Of a stretch of 64,000 bases of DNA, positions 1,293 through 27,935 are shown one piece after another. The stretch spans positions 1,088,001-1,152,000 of the forward strand of contig OZ219747.1 of assembly GCA_964291265.2 (NCBI GenBank), in the 5' to 3' direction. Numbering within the stretch: position 1 is the stretch's first letter; the number at the start of each line of letters is the position of its first letter. The position numbers and the translations under genes are program-made. The DNA is from Alphaproteobacteria bacterium (GTDB lineage: Bacteria > Pseudomonadota > Alphaproteobacteria > SP197). A model generated the notes under the pieces. The model was given only the letters and a program-made list of their open reading frames with translations. It did not search any database and was not told where the DNA came from.

Positions 1293-2624
1293 ACAAGCCG
1301 CCGTTACATCGGCAGACATGCCCGAATACCATTGGGCCGCGAGGTGGCGGCGCAGGAGGTCCCAGCGGTAGGCGGCGCGCGGGGCGATGCCGTCGACGGC
1401 GAGGACGAGGCGCCCGCGCGAGACCAGCCAGGAGCCGCCGACATCGTGGTTGACGCCGCGTACCGTGAGGGCGCCGCCCTCGGCGAAGCGGAAGATGGCG
1501 TCGCGGCCCATGTAGGGGAGGACGACATCGTCGTTCGCCGCCACCAGCCAGTCGGTCACGGCAAAGAGCGGATGGCGCTCGTCGGTGGCGAAGACCGGCA
1601 GGGCGTCGCCCGGGCGGTGGGCGTAGTCCCGGGTCGCCGGGAAGGTCTCCCAGTCCAGTTCGACACGGCGGGTGGCGGCATTCCACGCCAGGTGCCCGAT
1701 GTCGAGGATCTCGCCTGCCTCATCGACCGCCCACAGCTCGTCGCCCTCGGCGTGGAGCGCCAGGACGTACTCCCGGCCCAGGGCGTCGGTGACGATCGTG
1801 CCGTTGTTCTCCTTCAGCAGCGCGGCGAAGCGCAGCCGCGCCGCGTGCTCCGGATCGTCCGACAGCGCCGCTGTCGGTTCGGTCTCCTCGCCGGGGTGGT
1901 CGGCGCCGCGGAGCCGGTCGTGAATGTCGAACGGGCAGTGGGCCGGGAGTTCGGGGCGACCGGGAGCCTTGAAGCACCAATACCAGATGTCCCAGGGGTG
2001 CGCAGCGGCAACGCCGGTGTGGGTCGCCGGGAGCGACGTGTGGCGGTAGGGAGCATTCGGATCCTGGTCGAGGAGTTTCCAGATCGTCGGGTGGGTCTGC
2101 TTATTGTTGATGGGTACATGGTCCGGGATCGGCAGTTCCGGGCAGGCGTCCGCCATGAACCGCGGCCAGCTCTCCTGGACCCATCCGTCGGAGGAGAAAG
2201 ACCAGTAATCACCGCGTCCGGCGCGCCACTCCTCGACATGGAGACGCCCGGTGTCCGGGTTGTAGAACACCGGGGCGAGCGTGCCGTCGCGGTATTCCAC
2301 CGCTGCGGTCCAGCCCTCGCCTGATCGTGTGAACGGGCTGTGCGTCTGGTGAACTTCCGCCCGGTAGCGCCGCTTCTCACCCGTGCACTCCAGAATGTGA
2401 CCGTCCGGGTGGTGGTAGGTCGCGGAGGTAACGAGCCAGTGGCTCCAGTCTCCGGTCCATGCCTCGAACTGGATCGCAACCCGCCCGGCGAGGACCTCGC
2501 TGTAGAGTGCGGACGGCAGATGAGACCCCGGGTTCGGCGTGCGTTCGGCCACGCCGGTGGTCTTGCATCCGGCGAGGGCCATGAGGGCGGCGGCGAGCGG
2601 GGCGGCGAGAACGTGTCGAACCAT
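1272..2624 (-). CDS. Hypothetical Trp-rich lipoprotein
   Basis: GAAGGAG RBS before ATG 2624; signal peptide with lipobox LAG-C; no family recognised. Confidence 0.7.
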   Translation of the reverse strand: MVRHVLAAPLAAALMALAGCKTTGVAERTPNPGSHLPSALYSEVLAGRVAIQFEAWTGDWSHWLVTSATYHHPDGHILECTGEKRRYRAEVHQTHSPFTRSGEGWTAAVEYRDGTLAPVFYNPDTGRLHVEEWRAGRGDYWSFSSDGWVQESWPRFMADACPELPIPDHVPINNKQTHPTIWKLLDQDPNAPYRHTSLPATHTGVAAAHPWDIWYWCFKAPGRPELPAHCPFDIHDRLRGADHPGEETEPTAALSDDPEHAARLRFAALLKENNGTIVTDALGREYVLALHAEGDELWAVDEAGEILDIGHLAWNAATRRVELDWETFPATRDYAHRPGDALPVFATDERHPLFAVTDWLVAANDDVVLPYMGRDAIFRFAEGGALTVRGVNHDVGGSWLVSRGRLVLAVDGIAPRAAYRWDLLRRHLAAQWYSGMSADVTAACPTPSTH

Positions 2625-2719
2625 GGTTTTTCTCCTTCGGGTTCCAGACGGCGGGATCACTATTTGTTCCCCTATTGTACCACCTTCCGGGAACCCCTCT
2701 TGGCGCGGGGTGTAAGCGG

Positions 2720-4204
2720 TCATCCGCGGCCCCGGTCGCTGTCGCCGCGGCCGATACCGCCGGCTGGCCCTTTGCCCCTGTCGCCTGGGCCCCCACCGCC
2801 GCCTCCCGTTGGGGAGTTGTTGACCGACCGGGCGTTGCGGAGGTCCTTGGCCGGCACCTGCCCCATGGTGTGGTAGTCGGCGCGGCCGTCGAAGTTGACG
2901 TCGATTCCCGAGTCCGGGTCGTTGCCGCCGCGGTCATTGCCGCCGTTGCCGCTGCTGGGGCAGCCGCCGCCCTTGTCGCGGTCGACGCACGGGGTCGGCG
3001 TGCGTGGCGGCGGTGGTGTCGGCGTCCGTGTCGGCGTCACGGTGGTCGTGTCGCCGCCGCCGCTGTTGCCGGTCGTCGTCACGCTCACCGTCACGACCGG
3101 TGGTGGAGGCGGCGGCGGTGGAGGCGGCGGCAGGCGGCAGCTGGTGGCGGTGGTGGTCCACGACCCGGTCGACACCAGGCGCGTCGTCGGCGCGGCGTCC
3201 CACGGCCACTGGCGGTTGAACCAGGTCAGCGTGCGCCTCTGGGTGCGGCTGCCGATGAACCCCGCCGCGCAGCCGACCGTGCGGCTGCTCGTGGTGGTGG
3301 AGGACCAGTCCCGCGGCACGGGCGGGGTCGGGTTCGGATCCGTCCAGCAGCTCGTCGAGACGAACTGCGGCGGCGTGCGCCAGGACTGGCCAGCGGCGGT
3401 GACGGCGCGCTGGCGCCGCCACACGGTCTCGCCGGTGAGGGTTCCCTGGTGCGGCGGTCCGGGCGTGAAGGTGCAGGGCTGGCGGAAGTGCACCCACTCC
3501 GTGTAGTCGGGCACGCAGTGATCGACGAGCAGGCGCCAGGCGCCGGGCACGGGGTTGCCGACGGCGGCGCCGCGGCCGTTGACCTCCTGGACGAGGTCGC
3601 GCACCCAGGCCTGGCCGGTGCCGTGGGTGGCGGCCGGGCAGGGCCGGTTCTGGCGCTCCGGCGTCAGCACCTGGCTGCGCACCGTGAGGGGATCGATCAC
3701 TTCTCCGGCCAGGGCGACGCGGCCCTCCGGCAGGGCGCCGGCCATGCAGGCCGGCAGGGTGACGCTGGCGCGGCCGAGGATGCCGCGGGCGGCGCCGGCC
3801 TCGAGCCAGTGGAGCGGCGGGACCGCGTCGTGGGTGCGCGCGGCCTCGATGTGGGGCGCGAGGCGGACCGCGCGCTGATCGGCGCCGACGCCCTTGAGGT
3901 CGGTGGCCGCGGCGAAGACGACGAGGACCTGGCCGCAGTAGAGCGCGCCGAGGCCGCGCTCCGTCCAGTCGGCCTGCCAGCCGGTGGCCGCGGGCGGCGT
4001 GGCGCCCGGCCACGCCGTCGGCGCGCTGGAGCGCAGGCGGATGTGATCCTCGAGGCGCTGCCAGGCGGCCTCGATGGTCTGCGCGTGGTTGAGGGCTTCA
4101 GCCGTGGCGGCCAGGGCTGTCGGCGCTCCTCCCAGGAAGCCTGCCAGGGCGGCGGCGAGGGCGGCGAGGCGGAGAGGCTTTGCGTAACCGTCAGGGGTCG
4201 GCAT
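2720..4204 (-). CDS. Secreted PilV-like/adhesin-like protein with Cys-bounded repeats and Pro/Thr/Gly-rich tail
   Basis: Hydrophobic N-terminal signal, three C...C modules, 11-Pro run, DVNFDGRAD motif; overlaps the end of the pilO-like gene. Confidence 0.6.
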   Translation of the reverse strand: MPTPDGYAKPLRLAALAAALAGFLGGAPTALAATAEALNHAQTIEAAWQRLEDHIRLRSSAPTAWPGATPPAATGWQADWTERGLGALYCGQVLVVFAAATDLKGVGADQRAVRLAPHIEAARTHDAVPPLHWLEAGAARGILGRASVTLPACMAGALPEGRVALAGEVIDPLTVRSQVLTPERQNRPCPAATHGTGQAWVRDLVQEVNGRGAAVGNPVPGAWRLLVDHCVPDYTEWVHFRQPCTFTPGPPHQGTLTGETVWRRQRAVTAAGQSWRTPPQFVSTSCWTDPNPTPPVPRDWSSTTTSSRTVGCAAGFIGSRTQRRTLTWFNRQWPWDAAPTTRLVSTGSWTTTATSCRLPPPPPPPPPPPVVTVSVTTTGNSGGGDTTTVTPTRTPTPPPPRTPTPCVDRDKGGGCPSSGNGGNDRGGNDPDSGIDVNFDGRADYHTMGQVPAKDLRNARSVNNSPTGGGGGGPGDRGKGPAGGIGRGDSDRGRG

Positions 4205-9500: not shown

Positions 9501-9578
9501 TGTGCGCACCTCTCGCCTAGCCCGTCCGATTTATCGCCGTCATCGGGATCATTGCAAGCGGGTGACGGACGCGGCACC

Positions 9579-11192
9579 ATGACGGTCATGCAGGTGCCAC
9601 GCACGACAAGACGGCCTCGCCACATCGTCGATACGTGGTACGACTCGGCGAGTGACGATCCGTCCGTCCTGCAGATCTGGGCCTATACGTCACGCCTTTC
9701 CTGTCGCGTGGGCGAGGTCATTGAACTCCATGTGTCGACGAATGCCGACACCTTTGACCTTGACATAGCGAGGGACGGTCTCGAAACCGTCCGGGTTCAC
9801 CGCGAACCGGACCTTGCCGGCGGCTGGCACGCGACTCCACGTGACGCCTCCGCCATCGGATGTGGCTGGCCGGTTGCCTGGCGCATGACCGTTCCCGCCA
9901 CCTGGAGGCCTGGCGGCTACATCATCACCCTCACGGCACGGCGCGGTGACGAGATGGTGACGTGCGATCACGTCGTTCTTGTCGGGCGATCACGTCATGG
10001 AGCGGCTGCGCCGCTGCTCTTGCTGGCGGCGACGCCGACCTGGGTTGCCTACAACGAGTGGGGTGGTTCGAATGCCTACGAGGGAGTCTCCGGCGCCTCC
10101 GGCGACCGGTTCTCGACACGTCTGAGTCTTCAGCGGCCGTGGTCGCGCGGCTTTGCGAGGTTGCCTGCCGGGGCGCCGCGAATCCTTCCCGCGATACCTC
10201 TGCCGCAAGGAACCACAGCGCGTTATCCCTGCATGGAATGGGCATGGTCGCACGGCTATTCCAAGAAGTACGCGTCCACCGGATGGGCAAGCTATGAGCG
10301 CCACATGGCGCGCTGGCTCGAGGCGGAGGGTCACGAGGTGGACGTGGCGGCGCTCCACGACATTCATGATGCGCCGGACCTGCTGGACCGCTACCGTTGC
10401 GCCGTTGTTGTCGGGCATGACGAATACTGGAGTCGGCCCATGCGGGATGCCATCGACCGGTATGTCGAGGCAGGTGGCAGGGTGGCCCGCTTTGGCGGAA
10501 ACTTCTTCTGGCAGATCAGGCTGGAGGACGAAGGCCGAACCCAGGTCTGCTACAAGTACGTCGCGACCGAGGAAGATCCCGTCATGGGGACGGCCCGGGA
10601 ACATCTTGCCACCACGTCATGGGAATCGCCCGCGGTGAACTGGCCCGGGTCCCGCACCTTCGGGGTCAACGGTTCGCAGGGAATCTATGCCGGTCTCGGC
10701 CACTGTGCCGGCCGCGGAGCCGGTGGGTTCACGGTCTATCGTCCGGACCACTGGGCTTTTGACGATTGCTGTGTTGGCTACGGCGATATCCTCGGCGGCG
10801 ACAGCAGGATCTTCGGTTACGAGGTCGATGGACTCGACCACGTGATCCGGGATGGACTTCCCCGGCCGGTTCCGGGGGAGGACGTACCCGATGATCTCGA
10901 GATCCTCGCCTTGGGTCCCGCCACCACCGTCGAGGCCGATTTCGGGCTGTGGGGAGAGGATCTCTACATCGCCGACCATGACAGGCGGTTCCTTGCCCGC
11001 ATGTTCCACGGTGCGGAAACACCCGAGGCGCTGGAGAAGGTGACACGAGGCAGTGGCATGATCGTCACGTTCTCCAGGGGGGCAGGCGAAGTCTTCACCG
11101 CCGCCACCTGCGAGTGGGTCAATGGTCTGCGCCTTGCCGACCCCGCCGTCTGCCAGGTCACCCGCAACGTCCTCAACCGCTTTCTCGCCTGA
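9579..11192 (+). CDS. N,N-dimethylformamidase large-subunit family protein
   Basis: PTWVAYNEWGG, GHDEYWS, GYEVD motifs. Confidence 0.8.
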   Translation: MTVMQVPRTTRRPRHIVDTWYDSASDDPSVLQIWAYTSRLSCRVGEVIELHVSTNADTFDLDIARDGLETVRVHREPDLAGGWHATPRDASAIGCGWPVAWRMTVPATWRPGGYIITLTARRGDEMVTCDHVVLVGRSRHGAAAPLLLLAATPTWVAYNEWGGSNAYEGVSGASGDRFSTRLSLQRPWSRGFARLPAGAPRILPAIPLPQGTTARYPCMEWAWSHGYSKKYASTGWASYERHMARWLEAEGHEVDVAALHDIHDAPDLLDRYRCAVVVGHDEYWSRPMRDAIDRYVEAGGRVARFGGNFFWQIRLEDEGRTQVCYKYVATEEDPVMGTAREHLATTSWESPAVNWPGSRTFGVNGSQGIYAGLGHCAGRGAGGFTVYRPDHWAFDDCCVGYGDILGGDSRIFGYEVDGLDHVIRDGLPRPVPGEDVPDDLEILALGPATTVEADFGLWGEDLYIADHDRRFLARMFHGAETPEALEKVTRGSGMIVTFSRGAGEVFTAATCEWVNGLRLADPAVCQVTRNVLNRFLA

Positions 11193-11239
11193 CAGTGGTG
11201 GCCCGGGATCCTGCCGTCGGGGCGGAACCGGAACCGCTC

Positions 11240-11596
11240 GCATATCGAGATCTTCGAAACGACATACCCCCGGGTCTTTCGACGATCTCTCGATCAAGTC
11301 CGGCAAGCTTCTGCGGGCCAGAGCTTCCCGCAGTCTGGGAACCCCGTAGTCGCCGTCGGCAAACACCCGCAAGACCTCCGGGGCCTTGCGCAGAAGATCC
11401 ACCAGAACATCCGCAGCCGCATCCCGATCCCTTATGTCGGCCGTATGAACCCCTCAGGTCAATCGGTGACCCCTCGGTGTCCACCGTCAGATGACGCTTG
11501 GGACCCTTGATCTTCTTGCCCGCATCAAGACCAGCGAGGACCGCCGCATTCCGTCGTCTTGCACACCCAGTGTGTGTCGATCACCGCTGCCATGGG
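11240..11596 (-). pseudogene. IS5-family transposase remnant
   Basis: Frameshifted fragments AAVIDT..KTTECGGPR / DAGKKIKG.KRHLTVDTEG / DRDAA / VFADGDY. Confidence 0.75.
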
Positions 11597-11606
11597 TCCC
11601 GTGTCT

Positions 11607-13115
11607 TCACAGCATCCCGCTGAGCCTGATGCGCTGGACCTTGCCGGAGGGGCCCCTGGGCAGGTCGGCGAGGACATGGATGCGCTCGGGAGCCCGGAAC
11701 GAGCCGAGCCTGGCACGGCAGTGGGCGATGAGGTCATCGGTGGTCACCGTCGCGCCCTTCACCAGGCAGACGGCGGCTTCGACGCGCTGGCCGTAGTCCG
11801 GGCAGGGTCTGGCGAACGCCGCTGCTTCGACGACAGCGGGGTGGGCGTGAAGTGCGTCATCGACCTCCTGGGGCGCGATGTTCTCGCCGCCCTTGATGAT
11901 GAGTTCCTTCTGCCTGCCGATGACATGAAAGTAGCCGTTTCGGTCCATGGAGCCGACATCGCCGGTTTTCAGCCAACCATCCTTTGTGAAGATGTCGCGG
12001 GTCGCTTCTCCGTCATCGAGATAGCCCAGCATGACATTGGGGCCCTTCACGGCGATTTCGCCCGTCTGGCCGGGTCTCCGCACGTGCCCCTCGCCATCGA
12101 TGATGGCCACCTCGTTACCGAAGGCCACGCCTGGCGAGCCGATCTTGCGCTTTCCGGGCGGAAGGGGGTTGGCGAGAATCTGGGCCGCGGTTTCGGTGAG
12201 TCCCATGGTCTCGACGAGCGCGATCGCGAAGCGAGCCTCGAAGGCCCTGTGGACTTCGGGAGGAAGCGCCGACGAAGCGGACCTCGCGAACCGCAGACGG
12301 CGCAACACCTCTTCATGCGGTTCGCTGTCGTGATGGAGAAGGCGCGAGACAATGGTCGGAACACAGGAAAACCAGGTGGCGCCATACCGGTGGCAGTCCT
12401 CCCAGAAGCGCTGCACGGAAAACCGCCGGCAGACAATCACGGAGCCGCCGGAAACGAGCGGTCCCATCAGCGTTACGCAGAGCCCGTTGATATGGTAGTG
12501 GGGGAGAACGCACAAACCCCGGTCGTCCGGTCCGAGCCGGTGGGCGCAGGCCGTGGTCCATCCGCCCGCAAGCAGGCTTCGATGGCTGTGCAGCACGCCC
12601 TTGGGCCGGCCCGTCGTCCCGCTGGTGTACATCAAAAGGGCCTCGTCATCGGGGGAGGGCGGCGCGTTGCGGGACGTTGGTGAATTGCCAAGCCCGTCGG
12701 CATCGACAACCGTGAGACCGGCCACTCCCGCGTCGTCGAAATCCGGCTCCGTTTCATGGTCGACAACGGCGAAGCGCGCGCCGCTGTGGCGCAGCGCGTG
12801 GTGGTGGGCGTCGGCACCGGCTGCAAGGTTCAAGGGCGTGGCGCGAAAGCCGCCGAAGAACAGTCCGAACAGGACGAGAATGGCCGCCCGCCCGTTGTGA
12901 AGGAACGTGACGACACTCTCGCCCCTGGTGGCGCCGGCAGCTGTCAGGGAACCGGCGACCGACTCCGCTCCCTCGAGCAGACCGCTCCATGTGAGATCGG
13001 GTGTTTCGTCTGGAAAGAGGTGGCTGACCTTGTCGGGTGTCCTGTGGGCGTGCCGTTCGATCCAGCCGCGGATCGTGCCGGACGGCGATTCATTTCCCGC
13101 AGTCATCGGGCGCAC
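11607..13115 (-). CDS. sauT: Acyl-CoA ligase, probable sulfoacetate-CoA ligase
   Basis: MYTSGTTGRPKG and ETMGLTETA motifs; directly downstream of sauS. Confidence 0.7.
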   Translation of the reverse strand: MRPMTAGNESPSGTIRGWIERHAHRTPDKVSHLFPDETPDLTWSGLLEGAESVAGSLTAAGATRGESVVTFLHNGRAAILVLFGLFFGGFRATPLNLAAGADAHHHALRHSGARFAVVDHETEPDFDDAGVAGLTVVDADGLGNSPTSRNAPPSPDDEALLMYTSGTTGRPKGVLHSHRSLLAGGWTTACAHRLGPDDRGLCVLPHYHINGLCVTLMGPLVSGGSVIVCRRFSVQRFWEDCHRYGATWFSCVPTIVSRLLHHDSEPHEEVLRRLRFARSASSALPPEVHRAFEARFAIALVETMGLTETAAQILANPLPPGKRKIGSPGVAFGNEVAIIDGEGHVRRPGQTGEIAVKGPNVMLGYLDDGEATRDIFTKDGWLKTGDVGSMDRNGYFHVIGRQKELIIKGGENIAPQEVDDALHAHPAVVEAAAFARPCPDYGQRVEAAVCLVKGATVTTDDLIAHCRARLGSFRAPERIHVLADLPRGPSGKVQRIRLSGML

Positions 13116-14512
13116 CCGGCCCAGTAATCCGCGAACAGGTCCTCGAGCGAGGGCTCGTCCGGAGGAATGGTCCGGACCACCCTAGTGATGTTGAGGAAAT
13201 GTTTCCAGTGCAGGTTTTCGTCGATGGAGTTGCCGCCCCAACTGCCGCAGCCCATCGAGAGCGAGAAGGGAAGACCGTTGTCGAAGGAGCCGCCGGTGGC
13301 GATGGCGTGGGCCTGGTTGACGATGATGCGGCAGACCGGAAGCACACGTCCCAGTTCGACGGCGCGTTCATCGTGCGAAGTATGGAGTCCCACCGAGTGC
13401 CCGGCGCCCGCATGTGCCAGGATTCGCATGACGATGGCCCTGGCGTCGGCGAAGTCCCTGGCCCGGTAGAGTGCGGTGACGAGGGAGATCTTCTCGCCCG
13501 ATATCCGGTGCCGAGGCCCGGCATTCGCTGTTTCGACGGCGATGAATCGCGAATCGTCCGGAACCTCGTCTGCGAGTTCCAGAACATCGATCAGCACGCG
13601 GACGTCCCGTGCGATCGCTCGCGGATTCAGGCGGCCGCCAGGCCACAGGCGCTCGATGACATGGCACTCCTTCGTGGAATCCAGGATGGCGCATCCCTCG
13701 TTCCGGAGTGCCGCCGAAAAGACGTCGTAGAGGTCATCGACCACCACCAGGGCATTCTCCGAGGAACAGGAGGTGGCGTTATCAAAGGTCTTGGAGCGCG
13801 CGATCAGCCTCGCCGCTGTTTCGACATCGGCTGTCTCGTCGACAATGACCGGCACGTTGCCCGCGCCGACACCGATGGCCGGTGTTCCGGAGGTGTAGGC
13901 GCGTCTCACGTTGTCTTGTGAGCCCGTTGCCAGGGCGAGATCCACGGACTCGAGAAGTCTCCCGGTCCGTGCCTTGGTGGCGGGTGCCGGGATCATCTGG
14001 ACGAGATCGGGGTCGACGCGGGCCTTCGAGAACTGGTCGTGGATGTAGTCCAGCAGACGGCGGCACGCTTCGGTTCCCTTCGGCGATGGCGACAGGACGA
14101 TCGCATTGCCGCACTTGAGGGCATTGATGATGTTGTTGGCCGGAGTCGCGACCGGGTTGGTCGACGGGACAACGGCGCCGATCACGCCGATCGGCCGCGC
14201 GATCTCGGTGATTCCCCTCGCGGGGTCGTCGGCAATCACGCCGCATGTCGCGACATGTGCGATGTCGCGCATCAGACCGAGTGTCTTGCGGTGATTCTTG
14301 GTGACCTTGTCGGCGACATGGCCAAGTCCGGTCGAGCTGACTGCAAGTTCCGACAGGATCCGGTTGCGTTCCGGCTCCAGGAGCGCCCAGGCAGCCGCCT
14401 TGGCGGCCCTGTCGTAGCGCGCCTGTGTGGCGCCCGATTCGTAGCGCGCCTGGGCTGCCCGGGCCCGGGCCAGGAGATCGTCGACCAGAACGATGTCATC
14501 TTGATGGATCAT
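13103..14512 (-). CDS. sauS: Acylating sulfoacetaldehyde dehydrogenase
   Basis: KNHRKTLGLMRD, PSTNP, SKTFDNATSCSSEN, FDNGLPFSLSMGCG; start trimmed to ATG 14512. Confidence 0.8.
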   Translation of the reverse strand: MIHQDDIVLVDDLLARARAAQARYESGATQARYDRAAKAAAWALLEPERNRILSELAVSSTGLGHVADKVTKNHRKTLGLMRDIAHVATCGVIADDPARGITEIARPIGVIGAVVPSTNPVATPANNIINALKCGNAIVLSPSPKGTEACRRLLDYIHDQFSKARVDPDLVQMIPAPATKARTGRLLESVDLALATGSQDNVRRAYTSGTPAIGVGAGNVPVIVDETADVETAARLIARSKTFDNATSCSSENALVVVDDLYDVFSAALRNEGCAILDSTKECHVIERLWPGGRLNPRAIARDVRVLIDVLELADEVPDDSRFIAVETANAGPRHRISGEKISLVTALYRARDFADARAIVMRILAHAGAGHSVGLHTSHDERAVELGRVLPVCRIIVNQAHAIATGGSFDNGLPFSLSMGCGSWGGNSIDENLHWKHFLNITRVVRTIPPDEPSLEDLFADYWAGCAR

Positions 14513-14917
14513 GGTCTTTGCCCGCCCGCAAACGGGAACGGTAAGTGACCAGGACAGCGATGCAAACGTCTTCACTACGAGGACCCTGGGCTGAGACTTG
14601 GCGGTGTGATGGCCGGGCGGCATGTCGACGTCGTTCACGTTGCAGGGCTGGCAGGCGTCTCGCCGGCCACCATGTCGCGCCCTCAACCACTCCTCACTCG
14701 TGAGAGCCGACACCCGGGCGAGGGTCAAGGCGACGGTAAGCGAATTGGGCTGCATCCGCAACCGCGCGGCGTGGTCCATCCATGGCAGGAGAAGCGGAGC
14801 CATCGGTTTCGTTGTTCCGATCGTTACCGTGCGGTTGCCGGCAGCCGGGATCGGCGAGGCGGGGGCGGATGTCCTTCGCGAACTCGTGGCGTGCGATTCC
14901 AGGTGGCACCATCTGCC

Positions 14918-16249
14918 CTATAGAAGACGCCTGACGGTGCGCGACGCGACGACGTGGTGGTTCTTCACGTAGTCCTCATGGTTGCGCTCGATCGACCTGG
15001 GATCGTAGACATAGTTGACGAGAAAGCCTGCCGACTGGCGCAGGCGCTCGGTGGAGCGGTCGCCGAGCCAGTTGATCTGCTCGAGCCGCGCGCCGTTGCG
15101 CAGGTGGAATCGCGCCACGGCATCCAGGGGGTCGCTGCCGCGCTTGGCCTTCAGGAGATAGTACGCGATCATGCGTTCCAGAACGGGCCTGAGTTGACCC
15201 GCAATGGCCGCATCGTCCTGCCATCCTTCGTGGTCGAGGGCCTTGACGAGAGCCTGCTCGTCACCAGTCATGAGTCCGGCAGCGGTTCCCCCGGCCCTCT
15301 CCAACCATCCGCGGAACCCCGGTACGGGCGAGAGCGTCGCATAGGTATCAAGCCCGGGAAACTCGCGCGCCATGTCGAGCACGACCTGCTTGAGCAGGAA
15401 GTTGCCGAAGGAGATTCCCTTCAGTCCGGCGTGGCAGTTGTTGATCGAATAGAAGATCGCCGTGTCCGCATCCGCGGGGTCGATTTCCGTCCGGTCGGGA
15501 CCGATGATCGCGTCGATGTCCGTTGCGAGTCCTTGCGTCAGGGCGATCTCGACGAAGACCAGGGGATCGTCCGGCAAGGCGCCGTGGAAGAACGCGAAGC
15601 ATCTCCGGTCGCGAGCCAGGCGGCGCCTGAGATCGCCCCAGCCACGCATCTCGTGAACCGATTCGTTCTCGATGAGTTTCTCGAGCACGGCCGCGGGTGT
15701 CTGCCAGTCGATGCGGCGAAGTGTCAGAAAACCGCGATTGAACCAGGAAGCGAGGAGGTGGTGAAGGTCGAACTCCACAGCTTTCAGCGTAGGATCCCGG
15801 CGGACATCTTCCAGCAGATTGCTGCGCATGCGCACGAGCGCCTCGGTACCGTCCGGCGCCATGTTGAGACGACGGAAAAGCTCCTGGCGGGGCGGTTCCG
15901 CCGCTGCGACGAGACGCGCGTAGGTCTTGTCGTCACGCTGCAGGACATGGTCACGGGCACGATCGAGCACGGTATCGGGATCGACATGGTAGTTGTCGCG
16001 CAGTACGCGGAAGAAACCTCTCCTGGCACCGCGGTCCATGGCCTCGTAGGCGTCGAGCAGACGGCGCGCGAGCGCCGTGCCCGAGGCTTCGCCCCGTGTC
16101 GACAGCAACTCGCGGCACATGTCGTCCGGATTGCCGCCGATACCCCGTCCTTCCGCACCCACCCGCCGCAACAGCCAGTCGAGCCCGGCATCGGCCACGG
16201 AGTGAAGGAAGCTGTTGAATCCCGGCTTGTCCGGACTGGAGTTGCTCAC
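14918..16249 (-). CDS. matA: Malonyl-CoA decarboxylase
   Basis: WFNRGFL, FYSINNC..GL.GISFGNFL, TLSPVPGF, VARFHL.NGA; GTG start after GAAGGAG. Confidence 0.9.
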   Translation of the reverse strand: MSNSSPDKPGFNSFLHSVADAGLDWLLRRVGAEGRGIGGNPDDMCRELLSTRGEASGTALARRLLDAYEAMDRGARRGFFRVLRDNYHVDPDTVLDRARDHVLQRDDKTYARLVAAAEPPRQELFRRLNMAPDGTEALVRMRSNLLEDVRRDPTLKAVEFDLHHLLASWFNRGFLTLRRIDWQTPAAVLEKLIENESVHEMRGWGDLRRRLARDRRCFAFFHGALPDDPLVFVEIALTQGLATDIDAIIGPDRTEIDPADADTAIFYSINNCHAGLKGISFGNFLLKQVVLDMAREFPGLDTYATLSPVPGFRGWLERAGGTAAGLMTGDEQALVKALDHEGWQDDAAIAGQLRPVLERMIAYYLLKAKRGSDPLDAVARFHLRNGARLEQINWLGDRSTERLRQSAGFLVNYVYDPRSIERNHEDYVKNHHVVASRTVRRLL

Positions 16250-16437
16250 GGCTGGACACTCCTTCGCTCCCCTCCACCTTGGCACGCAGATCCCCGGGCG
16301 CAAGACCGCACGCTCCGGATTCGCAGCCGCGACAGCGCGAATTTCCGCGCCTTGGCGTCGACGGCTGCCGTGGGCGCCCTTTTGTGATTCACCGGCGAAC
16401 GAAGTCGGATGACTCTGTCGGACAGGGACCGGTCCAT

Positions 16438-16953
16438 TCAACCCGATAGGTCCGGCTCACGTTTCATCATGGCTCCCGAGAGTCGGTTTTCCGCCATCCT
16501 GCTGAAGGCTGCCTCCACTGCCGGCGGCAGCATGCCTGCGTCGAGGGCTGAAGGAATTGTGCGAACGCGAGAGCCTCGGGATTCCCTGTTGTGCCGCCAT
16601 TCTTCGAGTGCCGTGCACTGAAGAGTGGCCTGTTCGTCCCGAACACGGAGCCCGAACCTTCTGTCGATCTCGACCCGCGCTCCGGTGACCTTGGCGGCAA
16701 AGCGAGCCTGGCAGCCGGCAGTCGCGGCGTCGTTCCTGACCGCCCGGACCTTGCGACGCGAACCTGACGTTCTCAACTGGACGCCCGCCGCGCCACCCTG
16801 CCAGTTCTCCCGCATGTCCTGTCGTCTCCGCATCGGATCGTCGAACGGTGTTTCCCGGTGCGTGGTGGCGCCCGGGAACAGCAGCACCACCCGGTCCGGC
16901 CCGCCATCGACCCAGGCGCGGCCATAGGCATCCGGCCAGTTCTGTTTCGTCAT
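16438..16953 (-). pseudogene. Degenerate SnoaL/NTF2-like protein with read-through tail
   Basis: YGRAW...LF....RETPFDDP and LEEW.H resemble SnoaL-like proteins, with many apparent substitutions. Confidence 0.45.
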
Positions 16954-18383: not shown

Positions 18384-18605
18384 TCAGGCCACGAGCGCGG
18401 GAATCTCCTCATCTTCGGGGAAGCGGCCGAGATCGAGTTTCGAGAACAGGACCTCATCTCCTCTGGTGATCTCGAAGGATCCGGTTCGTCCTCCAAAGAT
18501 CTCGACATCGCCGGCACCTGCACCGATGAGCTGATCCCTCGCACGGAGCGCTCGTGGCTCATAGTTTCAGGAACGGCAGTATTCAATTCTGATCGCTTCA
18601 CTCAT
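18384..18605 (-). CDS. SelW/SelT/SelH (Rdx) family selenoprotein, in-frame UGA at codon 13
   Basis: MSEAIRIEYCRS-U-NYEPRA...GGRTGSFEI...LFSK...RFP..EI: CxxU plus Rdx motifs, 73 aa. Not in the ORF track. Confidence 0.85.
18526..18563 (-). promoter_or_regulatory. Candidate bacterial SECIS hairpin
   Basis: Just 3' of the UGA: ATGAGC-CACG...CGTG...GCTCAT complementary arms. Confidence 0.45.
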
Positions 18606-18663: not shown

Positions 18664-21081
18664 TCAGCCGAGAAGGCGCGTGTTGTCGGGATCGAACGGC
18701 GCTTCAGGGGCGATGCGCGCCCGTCGCGGTTCCCCGAGAATCTCGACATGGAGCGAGGAGGACGCAAGGTCGATGCCAGGGTCGAGGTAGGCCAGCGCAA
18801 TCGACTGTCCCACATGGTGACCGAAGCCGCCCGAGGACACCGTACCCACCACCTCGCCGTTCATCAGGACGGGTTCGTTTCCCCAGGCGTCGGCATCATC
18901 GGCGTCGACGAGGAGGGTGCAAAGCCGGTAGCGGAGTCCCTGGTTGTGGGCCTTGAGAAGCGCATCACGGCCGATGAAGCCACCCTTGTCCATGGCGACG
19001 AAGCGCCCCAGCCGCGCTTCGAAGGGGGTCGTGTCTGCGGTGAATTCCGCGCCCCAGCGCCCGTAACCTTTCTCGAGCCGCAGGGAATCGAGGGCCCTTG
19101 CTCCGCAGGCGACGAGATCGAGGTCCGCGCCTGCCGCCGTCAGGGCGCAGTAGAGTGCCTTCAGGTTGTCCCGCCTCACATGGATCTCGTACCCGAGATC
19201 GCCCGTGAAGGAGATGCGCATGACGAAGGCCGGCATGCCGTCGATCTCCATGCGGCGCGCAGTCAGGAAGGGGAATGCGGCGTTCGAGACATCGTCAAGC
19301 GCGACTTTCCCAAGGAGTGTCCGGGCCCTGGGCCCGGCAATGGCAAAGCCGCCATAGTGTCTGGTTTCGCTCCGCAACCAGACATCATAGCGTGGCAGGA
19401 ACTGCGCGAAGTGGCGCATGTGGAAGGCCTCGGCGGCACCGGAGCCGATCAGCCAGAACGCCGCATCCGAGAGACGTGTCACGGTGAAGTCACCGATGAT
19501 CCCGCCGGCGGCATTGAGCATGGGCGCCAGGACCGTGCGTCCGAGTTTTCGGGGAAGCCGACAGGCCAGCAGATGGTCGAGGAAGGCGGCTGCGTCCGGA
19601 CCGTCGATCACGTAGCGGGCGAAGCCGGTGATCTCGATCATGCCGACGGTTCGGCGCAGAGCACGGCACTCGCGCCCGACGGCGGTGAACCAGTTGGGCC
19701 GGCGGAAGGAAGGAACGTCGCGCGCCTCCTCTCCTGGATGGGCAAACCACAGGGGACGCTCGAGACCGAAGGCGGCGCCGAAGACCGCGCCCTTGTCTGC
19801 CATGATGTCATGCACCGGAGATGTCCTCACCGGTCTTCCCGACTCGTGTTCCTCTTCCGGCCAGCCGATGGCGAACCGCTTCGAGTAGGTCTCCGCCGAA
19901 CGCGCCAGGACATAGGTCCGGTCCGCCCAGTTGCCGAAGCGGGTGACGTCGAGCGGCATCACGTCAAGCGGCGGCACGCCTTCGAGAATCCAGTCCGCCA
20001 GCGCCCAGCCCACTCCGGCACTCTGGGAGAATCCGGGAATCATGCCGGCGGCGACGAAGTGGCCCCGCTTGCCGGGGACGGGACCGACGAGGGCCGCGCC
20101 GTCGGGTGACCACATCATCGGCCCATTGACGACCCTCTTCACCCCGGCGGACCCGAGGCAGGGCACGATGGAGATGGCGGCCTCCATGTTAGCGGAGATG
20201 CGATCGAGGTCGTCCGGCAGGAGTTCCATGCCGAAGTCGTCCGGCGTGCCGTCAACGGCCCAGTGGACGCCTTCGCGCTCATAGCACCCAAGCAGCATGC
20301 CGGCGCCTTCCTGGCGCAGGTAGAATTCGCTGTCCTGGTCGCGGGTCAGGGGGAGTTCACCCTCCAGTGCGGCAACCTCGGCGATGTCGTCGGTGACGAC
20401 ATATTGATGTTCCATGGGGACGAGCGGCAGAGTGTAGTCGGCCATGGCCGCCACTTCCCTTGCCCAGAGCCCCGCGGCGTTGACGACCGTTTCGGCGACG
20501 ACCGTGCCCGCGGGCGTGGCAATGTCCCAGTCGCCGTCGCCGCGTCGGATGAAGCCGGTCACGGGCGTGTTCCTGGCGATGGCTCCGCCGGCCTGGCGCA
20601 CGCCCGCGGCGAAGGCTTGGGTCACTCCGGAAGGATCGACGTGGCCGTCCGTCGCTCCCCACATGCCGCCCAGAATCCGGCTGGTGTCGACGAGCGGGTT
20701 GAGCCGACGGATGTCATTCGGGCCGATGATCTCGAACTCCTGGCCGAGATAGCGCGCCCGCGCCCGCTGGATCTTCAGTTCGTCGAGGCGGTCAATGCTG
20801 GTGGCGAGGTAGAGTCCGCCGCAGCGATGCAGGCCGCAGGATTGGCCGGTCTCCTCCTCGAGGCTGTCGTAGAGCCTCAGTGAATAGTCCTGCAGGCGGG
20901 CAAGACTGGTGTTGGTGTGCATGGCGTGGACGTTGGCGGCGGCATGCCATGTCGACCCCGACGTCAGGTCGGCACGCTCGAGCAGCAGCACGTCCGAACA
21001 TCCGGCGCGGATCAGGTGCCATGCAATGGCGCAACCGACAACGCCGCCGCCGACGATCACGACACGGGCCTGGGACTTCAT
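18664..21081 (-). CDS. Dimethylglycine/sarcosine dehydrogenase family (FAD + GcvT domains)
   Basis: VVIVGGG, LTSGSTWHAA, GDLGYEIH, LRLEKGY. Confidence 0.88.
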   Translation of the reverse strand: MKSQARVVIVGGGVVGCAIAWHLIRAGCSDVLLLERADLTSGSTWHAAANVHAMHTNTSLARLQDYSLRLYDSLEEETGQSCGLHRCGGLYLATSIDRLDELKIQRARARYLGQEFEIIGPNDIRRLNPLVDTSRILGGMWGATDGHVDPSGVTQAFAAGVRQAGGAIARNTPVTGFIRRGDGDWDIATPAGTVVAETVVNAAGLWAREVAAMADYTLPLVPMEHQYVVTDDIAEVAALEGELPLTRDQDSEFYLRQEGAGMLLGCYEREGVHWAVDGTPDDFGMELLPDDLDRISANMEAAISIVPCLGSAGVKRVVNGPMMWSPDGAALVGPVPGKRGHFVAAGMIPGFSQSAGVGWALADWILEGVPPLDVMPLDVTRFGNWADRTYVLARSAETYSKRFAIGWPEEEHESGRPVRTSPVHDIMADKGAVFGAAFGLERPLWFAHPGEEARDVPSFRRPNWFTAVGRECRALRRTVGMIEITGFARYVIDGPDAAAFLDHLLACRLPRKLGRTVLAPMLNAAGGIIGDFTVTRLSDAAFWLIGSGAAEAFHMRHFAQFLPRYDVWLRSETRHYGGFAIAGPRARTLLGKVALDDVSNAAFPFLTARRMEIDGMPAFVMRISFTGDLGYEIHVRRDNLKALYCALTAAGADLDLVACGARALDSLRLEKGYGRWGAEFTADTTPFEARLGRFVAMDKGGFIGRDALLKAHNQGLRYRLCTLLVDADDADAWGNEPVLMNGEVVGTVSSGGFGHHVGQSIALAYLDPGIDLASSSLHVEILGEPRRARIAPEAPFDPDNTRLLG

Positions 21082-26816: not shown

Positions 26817-27935
26817 TCAACGCCCCGTGAACGGCAGGTCCGTGACCTCTCCGTCTCGCATGCCGTCGGGTGTGGCGACCGTGACAGGCGTTCCCGGATC
26901 CCAGGCGCTGCGCTCCATCATGGCAAGGGCGATGTTGGTGGCAAGGTCAGGTGAGAAGGCTGCCGATGTCACCTGTCCGGCCGTCGCGCCGGAGTGGAGG
27001 ACGGGCCAGGGCTCGACACAGCCCGGCGCTGCTCTTCCATCGAACCTGACGCCGCGGATGATCCTCACCGGTCCGCCCGAATCGCGGATGCGCTCGAGGG
27101 TGTCACGGGCGATGAATTCCACGGGTGATTCGAGATTCACGAATCGGTCGAGACCGCACTCGAAGGGATTGTTCTCCTGCGTCATGTCGTTGCCGTGCGA
27201 GAGCAGGGCTCCCTCGATGCGCTCGATGAGATTCGGACAGCCCGGTCCCACGCAGAGATCCTCGCCTGCGGCGAACAGGGCGTCCCAAAGGGCCTGTCCG
27301 CTGGCAGCATCGTCGATGTAGATCTCGAATCCGCCCTGCCTGGACCATCCCGAACGCGCCACCACGAATGCATGGCCGGCAAAGGGCAGTTGTGCAAAGC
27401 CGAAGAAGCGGATGTCGCGCACCTGCTCGCCGAGCACCCTCGACAGGAGGTCGTCGGCCCTGGGCCCCTGGACGGCGATGGGTCCGACACCCGGCTCGAA
27501 GACACGCGCGTCGAGACCCAGACCAAGCGCGAGCCCCTTGCCCCAAAGCGCGACGTCGGAATCGGCGAGGGAAATCCAGAAACGGTTTTCCGCCAGACGC
27601 AGGATGACCGGGTCATTGATCATGCCCCCCGTCTCGTCCACCAGGGGCGCATAGGCACACCGGCCCGGAGCCAGCCGGGAGATGTCGCGCGGCGTCATCA
27701 TCTGCACGAGGTGGGCCGCGTCCGGACCCACCACCTCGACTTGCTGTTCACAGCTGACGTCCCAGACCTGAACATGCCGTTTGAGGTGATGGTAGTCCTC
27801 CTCAAGCCCGCGGAAGAACGTCGGCAAGAGCATGTGGTTGTAGACAGTGAAACCGCCGACGCCCTGTGCCTCGATTCGTGACGAGAATGGTGTACGGCGG
27901 GTGCGGCGCGATATGGAGATCGCGGGTTCTTTCAT
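26817..27935 (-). CDS. dmdA: Dimethylsulfoniopropionate demethylase
   Basis: SRR.RRTPF, TVYNHMLLP, DYHHLK.HVQVWDV, GPGCPNLIERIE. Confidence 0.85.
   Translation of the reverse strand: MKEPAISISRRTRRTPFSSRIEAQGVGGFTVYNHMLLPTFFRGLEEDYHHLKRHVQVWDVSCEQQVEVVGPDAAHLVQMMTPRDISRLAPGRCAYAPLVDETGGMINDPVILRLAENRFWISLADSDVALWGKGLALGLGLDARVFEPGVGPIAVQGPRADDLLSRVLGEQVRDIRFFGFAQLPFAGHAFVVARSGWSRQGGFEIYIDDAASGQALWDALFAAGEDLCVGPGCPNLIERIEGALLSHGNDMTQENNPFECGLDRFVNLESPVEFIARDTLERIRDSGGPVRIIRGVRFDGRAAPGCVEPWPVLHSGATAGQVTSAAFSPDLATNIALAMMERSAWDPGTPVTVATPDGMRDGEVTDLPFTGR

Follow-up and report, generated by a model that had tools for sequence, protein, structure and literature searches.

The 64,000-nucleotide stretch of alphaproteobacterial DNA analyzed here (the window) contains a short minus-strand frame, interrupted by a single TGA and wedged between the genes for two flavin-dependent enzymes, which raises two questions: whether this frame specifies a genuine selenoprotein and, if so, whether its product is dedicated to the oxidation chemistry of either neighbor. 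The TGA is codon 13 and occupies the second redox position of a CxxU motif (C10-R-S-U13); it is followed by 60 open codons in which the GSFEI, FSK and RFP motifs are intact (Table 1). The open reading frame list made with translation table 11 and a minimum of 90 aa has no gene in this frame. In these respects our analysis agrees with a first-pass annotation of the sequence, which had picked out a 73-codon frame missing from the ORF track, a TGA at the second CxxC/U position and the three motifs beyond it. A further in-frame ATG lies nine codons upstream of position 18605, but we favor 18605 as the start because a stop codon cuts off the upstream extension in four closely related sequences. In public protein sets, 14 of 20 homologs are C-terminal pieces of 44-54 aa. 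The practical outcome is a correction of annotation, as a real gene is dropped or shortened by callers that use table 11.

Table 1. Coordinates of the Rdx/SelW-like locus within the window
Feature	Position	Strand	Basis or remark
DAO-family FAD oxidoreductase (PF01266), 436 aa	17034..18344	minus	profile; structure match
Rdx/SelW-like selenoprotein gene, 73 aa, C10-R-S-U13	18384..18605	minus	frame, profiles, model
Start codon (ATG) of the Rdx gene	18605-18603	minus	
Cys10 codon (TGC)	18578-18576	minus	
In-frame UGA, inferred selenocysteine codon 13	18567..18569	minus	TGA kept across orthologs
Stop codon of the Rdx gene	18386-18384	minus	
Bacterial SECIS-like stem-loop	18526..18562	minus	folding, covariation in listed loci, synonymous constraint
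Apical stem of the SECIS	18548-18546 / 18540-18538	minus	three pairs
5-nt loop of the SECIS	18545-18541	minus	G at 18544 is conserved; loop lies 21 nt past UGA
Dimethylglycine-dehydrogenase (DMGDH)-like flavoprotein, 805 aa from the ATG common to relatives	18664..21081	minus	PF01266+PF16350+PF01571+PF08669

Translated with a cysteine in place of selenocysteine, the protein scores above the cut-offs of both PF10262 (53.7 bits against 22.6) and TIGR02174 (49.9 bits against 34.2), which bears out its proposed assignment to the Rdx/SelW-like family, and it is the sole PF10262 match in the genome. An AlphaFold model built from a 19-sequence alignment (pLDDT 88, pTM 0.72) predicts a compact thioredoxin-like Rdx fold for the 73 residues, with the CxxU motif coming after strand 1 (E5-10) and ahead of a helix (H16-28). 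The top Foldseek matches of this model are all SelW-related: the Cys-type Rdx structures 2p0g (Vibrio), 2fa8 (Agrobacterium Atu0228) and 2ojl (Bordetella) share the predicted fold with TM scores of 0.86-0.91, while mouse SelW (2npb) and human MIEN1 (2ljk) reach 0.71 and 0.66; the Pseudomonas structures 2obk and 2oka are likewise Cys-type Rdx proteins of this fold. The CxxU aligns with the CxxC of 2ljk, 3dex and 2fa8, and the aligned bacterial Rdx structures, at 24-30% identity, carry CxxC where the window protein has CxxU. Judging from this motif and the predicted fold, the protein would be a thiol/selenol oxidoreductase.

SelW-like proteins are a long-known family of prokaryotic selenoproteins (PMC1794560), which is described as "predicted with high confidence", characterized by PF10262 and CxxU, and largely uncharacterized in function (PMC13188914); it is also the top family in the marine table of the GOS survey, with 427 sequences from 40 samples (PMC2398784). 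The window gene is a further member of this family, which is among the most common ones known for prokaryotic selenoproteins, and it shares with other bacterial SelW-like genes the N-terminal CxxU, the Rdx fold, a length of about 70-80 aa and a UGA with a downstream bacterial SECIS. It differs from them only in its neighborhood, namely the fixed position ahead of a DAO gene in one family. Like it, the Campylobacter SelW (CJnc60) was missed by annotation, and read-through of the UGA of that gene is reported from Ribo-seq and proteomics (PMC11955535). However, the window protein is not a member of the corresponding equivalog, NF041051 (SelTWH_Campy), against which it scores 74.2 bits, under the 88-bit cut-off.

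The objection that the genome might lack the means to decode UGA as selenocysteine fails. The source genome (G000; 100% complete, two contigs) has selA (524 bits) and selB (380 bits) side by side at C2:1887184-1890404, both above cut-off, selD at C1:147687 (274 bits in the genome search, above cut-off) and a tRNA-Sec(UCA), i.e. selC, at C1:146424. SelA is further encoded in all 22 same-genus genomes, in G023 and in G041-G045; no selA turned up in G024, which has an Rdx of the Cys type (CTQC), or in G035 (77% complete), although the latter carries the TGA form. The Rdx sequence is matched in 24 of the 41 genomes searched, the source genome included, and 22 of these have one TGA, always at codon 13 (L016-L037); the other two matches, both distant and weak, are the Cys-type protein of G024 and a copy with an internal TAA in G023. 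The latter (G023:C179:1227-1448, L181; PF10262 100 bits) is possibly a broken Cys-type version, and a database relative with 69% identity (P0002) has a serine at the Sec position (CRAS), which may reflect a true substitution or an error of sequencing or gene calling. When the whole order was searched (33 genomes, all of one family) with a query lacking Met1 and with the terminal stop read as C, 24 genomes matched, every one with a single TGA, and the hits within the genus were those already obtained from the 41 genomes; G043 and G046-G048 were searched by protein query only. The TGA is thus kept in 24/24 family orthologs, and G024 has Cys instead. When the window sequence is aligned with 17 of 19 same-genus orthologs (18 sequences), pN/pS comes to 0.26 ahead of the UGA and to 0.27 across codons 27-70, and none of the 18 has another stop in the frame. 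The decay beyond the UGA that would mark a dying gene is therefore not seen in these relatives; as judged from the substitution ratios, this part of the frame is under purifying selection.

The hairpin proposed just 3' of the UGA is present, conserved and covarying, but its folding energy (-12.1 kcal/mol) is no better than that of shuffled sequences (z -0.56 in one test, -0.28 to +2.0 in another), and a loose apical-hairpin rule is satisfied by 15% of the 133,999 TGA triplets genome-wide. By itself, then, the hairpin is at chance level, and it is conservation and covariation that make the case. The bacterial SECIS consensus, as given in one figure legend (PMC13188914, Fig. 2), has an apical loop of 3-9 nt whose first two positions include a G, a distance of 16-37 nt from the UGA, a minimum free energy of at most -7.5 kcal/mol and an upper stem of 4-16 bp. 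The Rdx hairpin fits in its 5-nt loop with a G at position 2 followed by a U, in its 21-nt distance and in its energy. Its upper stem consists of three contiguous pairs, beyond which come a G-G mismatch and then more pairs with interruptions, and is of borderline length in the host clade, where the optional closing pair of the loop does not form either (C/C); in the 80 wider loci discussed next, 94% have a base pair at the position of the mismatch.

These loci come from a scan of a genome collection with a pattern that stops short of the apical hairpin, which lists 80 loci of at least 120 stretches; by their record titles they span Gemmatimonadota, Desulfobacterota, Acidobacteriota, Myxococcota and Alphaproteobacteria, among other groups. 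All three apical pairs form in 74 of the 80, against a mean of 39.5 and a maximum of 49 in 5,000 shuffles, the significance of which is raised somewhat by kinship among the loci, and in 29 of the 33 distinct 11-mers (9.9 when shuffled). Many different letter pairs make up this stem across the listed loci, and of the 1,224 helices of 3 bp that the first 60 nt allow, the apical one ranks best. The loop G is found in 80/80, though the codon there specifies Gly, Ser or Arg. Within the genus, 92.6% of cells are paired as opposed to 27-45% when the structure is slid along, but there is little true covariation, with five of the six upper pairs invariant and 63 of 500 shuffles matching the paired percentage; the argument from covariation hence rests on the 80 listed loci, as the pairs within the genus barely vary. 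Synonymous divergence in the 18 aligned sequences halves at codons 14-26 (pS 0.225 versus 0.47), and the only invariant degenerate codons of the 16 listed, Leu20 CTC and Arg21 CGT (18/18), are those that build the apical stem and loop. The covariation across the listed loci offers a clean case of a bacterial SECIS constraining a protein sequence. We regard it as virtually certain that the Rdx gene is a true selenoprotein gene, in which Sec would be inserted at UGA codon 13 by a SelB-GTP-Sec-tRNA complex binding the apical GU loop.

The second question concerns the neighbors. As first described, the Rdx gene lies co-oriented between the two flavoenzyme genes, 58 nt past the end of the DMGDH-like gene and 39 nt ahead of the DAO gene. 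The upstream product combines DAO, FAO_M, GCV_T and GCV_T_C domains. The closest solved structure to the downstream product is the L-amino acid deaminase 5fjm (E 1.4e-62), none of the best 25 NCBIfam matches listed for it is above cut-off, and the names of its plasmid and Atlas matches are generic. A scan for promoters and terminators between the three genes, which performs at chance level, showed nothing. The Rdx gene is likely co-transcribed with the downstream DAO gene.

Could the selenoprotein then specifically serve the DAO flavoenzyme, either keeping it reduced or clearing peroxide and oxidized thiols arising from amino-acid oxidation? Such a role would explain the pattern within the host family and, if true, would define a client for a bacterial Rdx selenoprotein. 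A DAO ortholog (at least 57% identity) is found in 23 of the 33 genomes of the order, each no more than 1.3 kb downstream of Rdx, and in another (G041) the DAO gene is cut by a contig end next to Rdx, so that the two are adjacent and co-oriented in 24/24 genomes with Rdx, across three genera. With the queries used, 24 genomes have both genes and nine have neither; they are never apart among the 33, and genomes with and without the pair occur inside each of the three genera. Three genomes with no PF10262 match (G003, G006 and G007) nonetheless keep selA. The pair outlives the loss or relocation of the DMGDH-like gene in seven genomes and, in four, the arrival of a PhyH dioxygenase gene between its members (G044 and G045 have a similar-looking gene after the DAO gene), and the short gap between its members in the window likewise favors a DAO partnership. 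In a near-identical locus (L107) the DAO is 93.8% identical.

Nevertheless, several lines of evidence lead us to consider a specific service to the DAO unlikely. Adjacent genes are expected to be lost together in any case, and the genomes compared are kin. To gauge this, genes were called by a simple procedure on 200 kb each of G022 and G008 and on 400 kb of G045, and the background gene order in each was compared with the source genome. Co-oriented neighbors with orthologs in the source genome are still within 2 kb of each other in 56/68 (G022), 39/41 (G008) and 44/54 (G045) cases, i.e. 81-95%; if pairs with only one ortholog are counted, 58%, 81% and 34%, respectively, are intact, and even neighbors that are not operon-like stay close in 12/20 and 17/24 cases. 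Since only 34-81% of background pairs are intact by the second count, the Rdx-DAO pair falls on the stable side, yet it is comparable to many other pairs. Outside the family the link disappears. In a survey of DAO loci for which the upstream sequence extends 700 bp or more (flanks of 1.5-3 kb), an Rdx gene accompanies the DAO gene in 11 of 12 loci at 60% identity or more, family genomes included, in one of six at 55-60%, this one having the gene order of the host family, and in none of 67 under 55%. Conversely, no DAO or DMGDH homolog occurs within 3.5 kb of the Sec-type Rdx gene in 79 of the 80 listed loci, the sole exception being in-family, and seven inspected relatives from outside the family with the same SECIS type have unrelated or uncalled neighbors. 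The Rdx-DAO link thus ends at the boundary of the host family. No cysteine column is specific to the Rdx-linked DAOs (25 linked and 22 unlinked loci compared). DAO-family enzymes, moreover, are not known to depend on a thiol oxidoreductase, which counts against a DAO-specific role.

A different pairing recurs elsewhere: in 29 of the 80 listed loci (L060-L138) a phosphofructokinase-like gene lies directly downstream of the Sec-type Rdx gene, and the 25 of these that are visible are all titled Gemmatimonadota. Together with the DAO linkage this indicates that the Rdx family forms stable, lineage-specific pairings without an obvious redox link. The suggestion that the selenoprotein is a redox partner or protectant of the DAO accordingly gains a little support from the unbroken linkage in the family and loses ground to the background-level retention and to the absence of the link beyond it. 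Synteny is similarly divided, with the DAO gene adjacent in 24/24 family genomes and the DMGDH-like gene in 16/24. Were the pairing functional, a case that the comparative data make unlikely, it would name a testable client.

Still less probable, and in our view quite improbable, is that Rdx belongs to a three-gene methylamine- or amine-oxidation unit with the DMGDH-like enzyme. The order DMGDH-Rdx-DAO, with the DMGDH-like gene no more than 2.3 kb upstream of Rdx, is seen in 16 of the 24 Sec-type genomes, including genus g20, and is probably old in the family; the short DMGDH-Rdx gap in the window would also suit such a unit. However, this gap widens to 1.5 and 2.2 kb in G014 and G018, and the DMGDH-like gene is elsewhere in four genomes (at a distance of 0.5 Mb in G020 and of 9 kb in G041, and on a different contig in both G021 and G042); in G016 it is split by a contig end. 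Its ortholog was not found in G017, G022 and G008, all of which keep Rdx, whereas five genomes that lack this Rdx (G003, G006, G007, G023 and G043) do have it, with an identity of at least 64%. The DMGDH-like and Rdx genes are hence not coupled, and the proposal that the selenoprotein is a partner or protectant in DMGDH-like amine oxidation finds no support. That the gene is a pseudogene with TGC turned to TGA, or that a short C-terminal piece alone is translated, is hardly credible: the 44-54 aa database entries and the ordinary hairpin energy would suit it, but against it stand the conservation of the TGA over many phyla with a covarying SECIS in the 80 listed loci, the purifying selection acting before as well as after the UGA, the intact Sec machinery and the reported translation of the Campylobacter SelW homolog through its UGA (PMC11955535).

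Of the readings considered, we find it reasonably probable that the gene specifies a SECIS-recoded general CxxU oxidoreductase, likely co-transcribed with the DAO gene and probably not its dedicated partner. A general function without a specific partner is preferred because 79/80 listed loci are without DAO or DMGDH genes, 0/67 distant DAOs are accompanied by Rdx and background adjacency is similar. For this general oxidoreductase, Cys10 and Sec13, located in the loop that joins strand 1 to helix 1 of the model, would cycle between a selenolate/thiol pair and a selenenylsulfide, and the protein may thereby reduce or reshuffle oxidized cysteines on client proteins. The adjacency to the DAO gene probably reflects shared inheritance and not a working partnership: the Rdx gene was likely placed ahead of the DAO gene once, in the ancestor of the family, with the pair then inherited or lost as a block. 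In the literature covered, mostly at the level of titles and abstract openings, no SelW-like gene is described as a neighbor of a DAO or DMGDH gene.

Beyond this locus, a 2006 survey names a single selenoprotein, FdhA, for those Alphaproteobacteria that decode Sec (PMC1794560). Taken as an in-genome control for the SECIS, FdhA finds its best match at G000:C2:3635678-3637729 (L346), which has no internal stop, and this formate dehydrogenase alpha match is apparently not a selenoprotein. The host lineage thus seems to use Sec for proteins other than FdhA. A de novo scan of the genome for selenoproteins was very noisy: of 11 of its candidates that went on to family searches, one belongs to the UGSC family; the others were ordinary intergenic stops, transposase fragments or had no match. 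The UGSC candidate (G000:C2, TGA at 3712682, plus strand; L351) scores 136 bits against PF24696 and 120 against NF041046 (cut-off 125), and has a SECIS-like hairpin. A second candidate, a PrdB/GrdB-like gene whose in-frame UGA is part of a UxxC motif (G000:C1, TGA at 149389, minus strand; L011 at about 2430-3370, and L359), reaches 37.5 bits against PF07355 and 77 bits, below cut-off, against TIGR04483, and adjoins selD and the tRNA-Sec gene. SelD itself seems to form the rear part of one long frame (L011; the ORF in G000:C1 ending at 148721), just downstream of the tRNA-Sec gene, in which it is apparently fused to an oxidoreductase-like region at the N-terminus. In the window, the stretches 9552-16441 and 26817-27935 hold a dimethylformamidase beta-like gene and genes for an acyl-CoA ligase and a malonyl-CoA decarboxylase, along with the acylating sulfoacetaldehyde dehydrogenase SauS and the DMSP demethylase DmdA, both of which score above cut-off.
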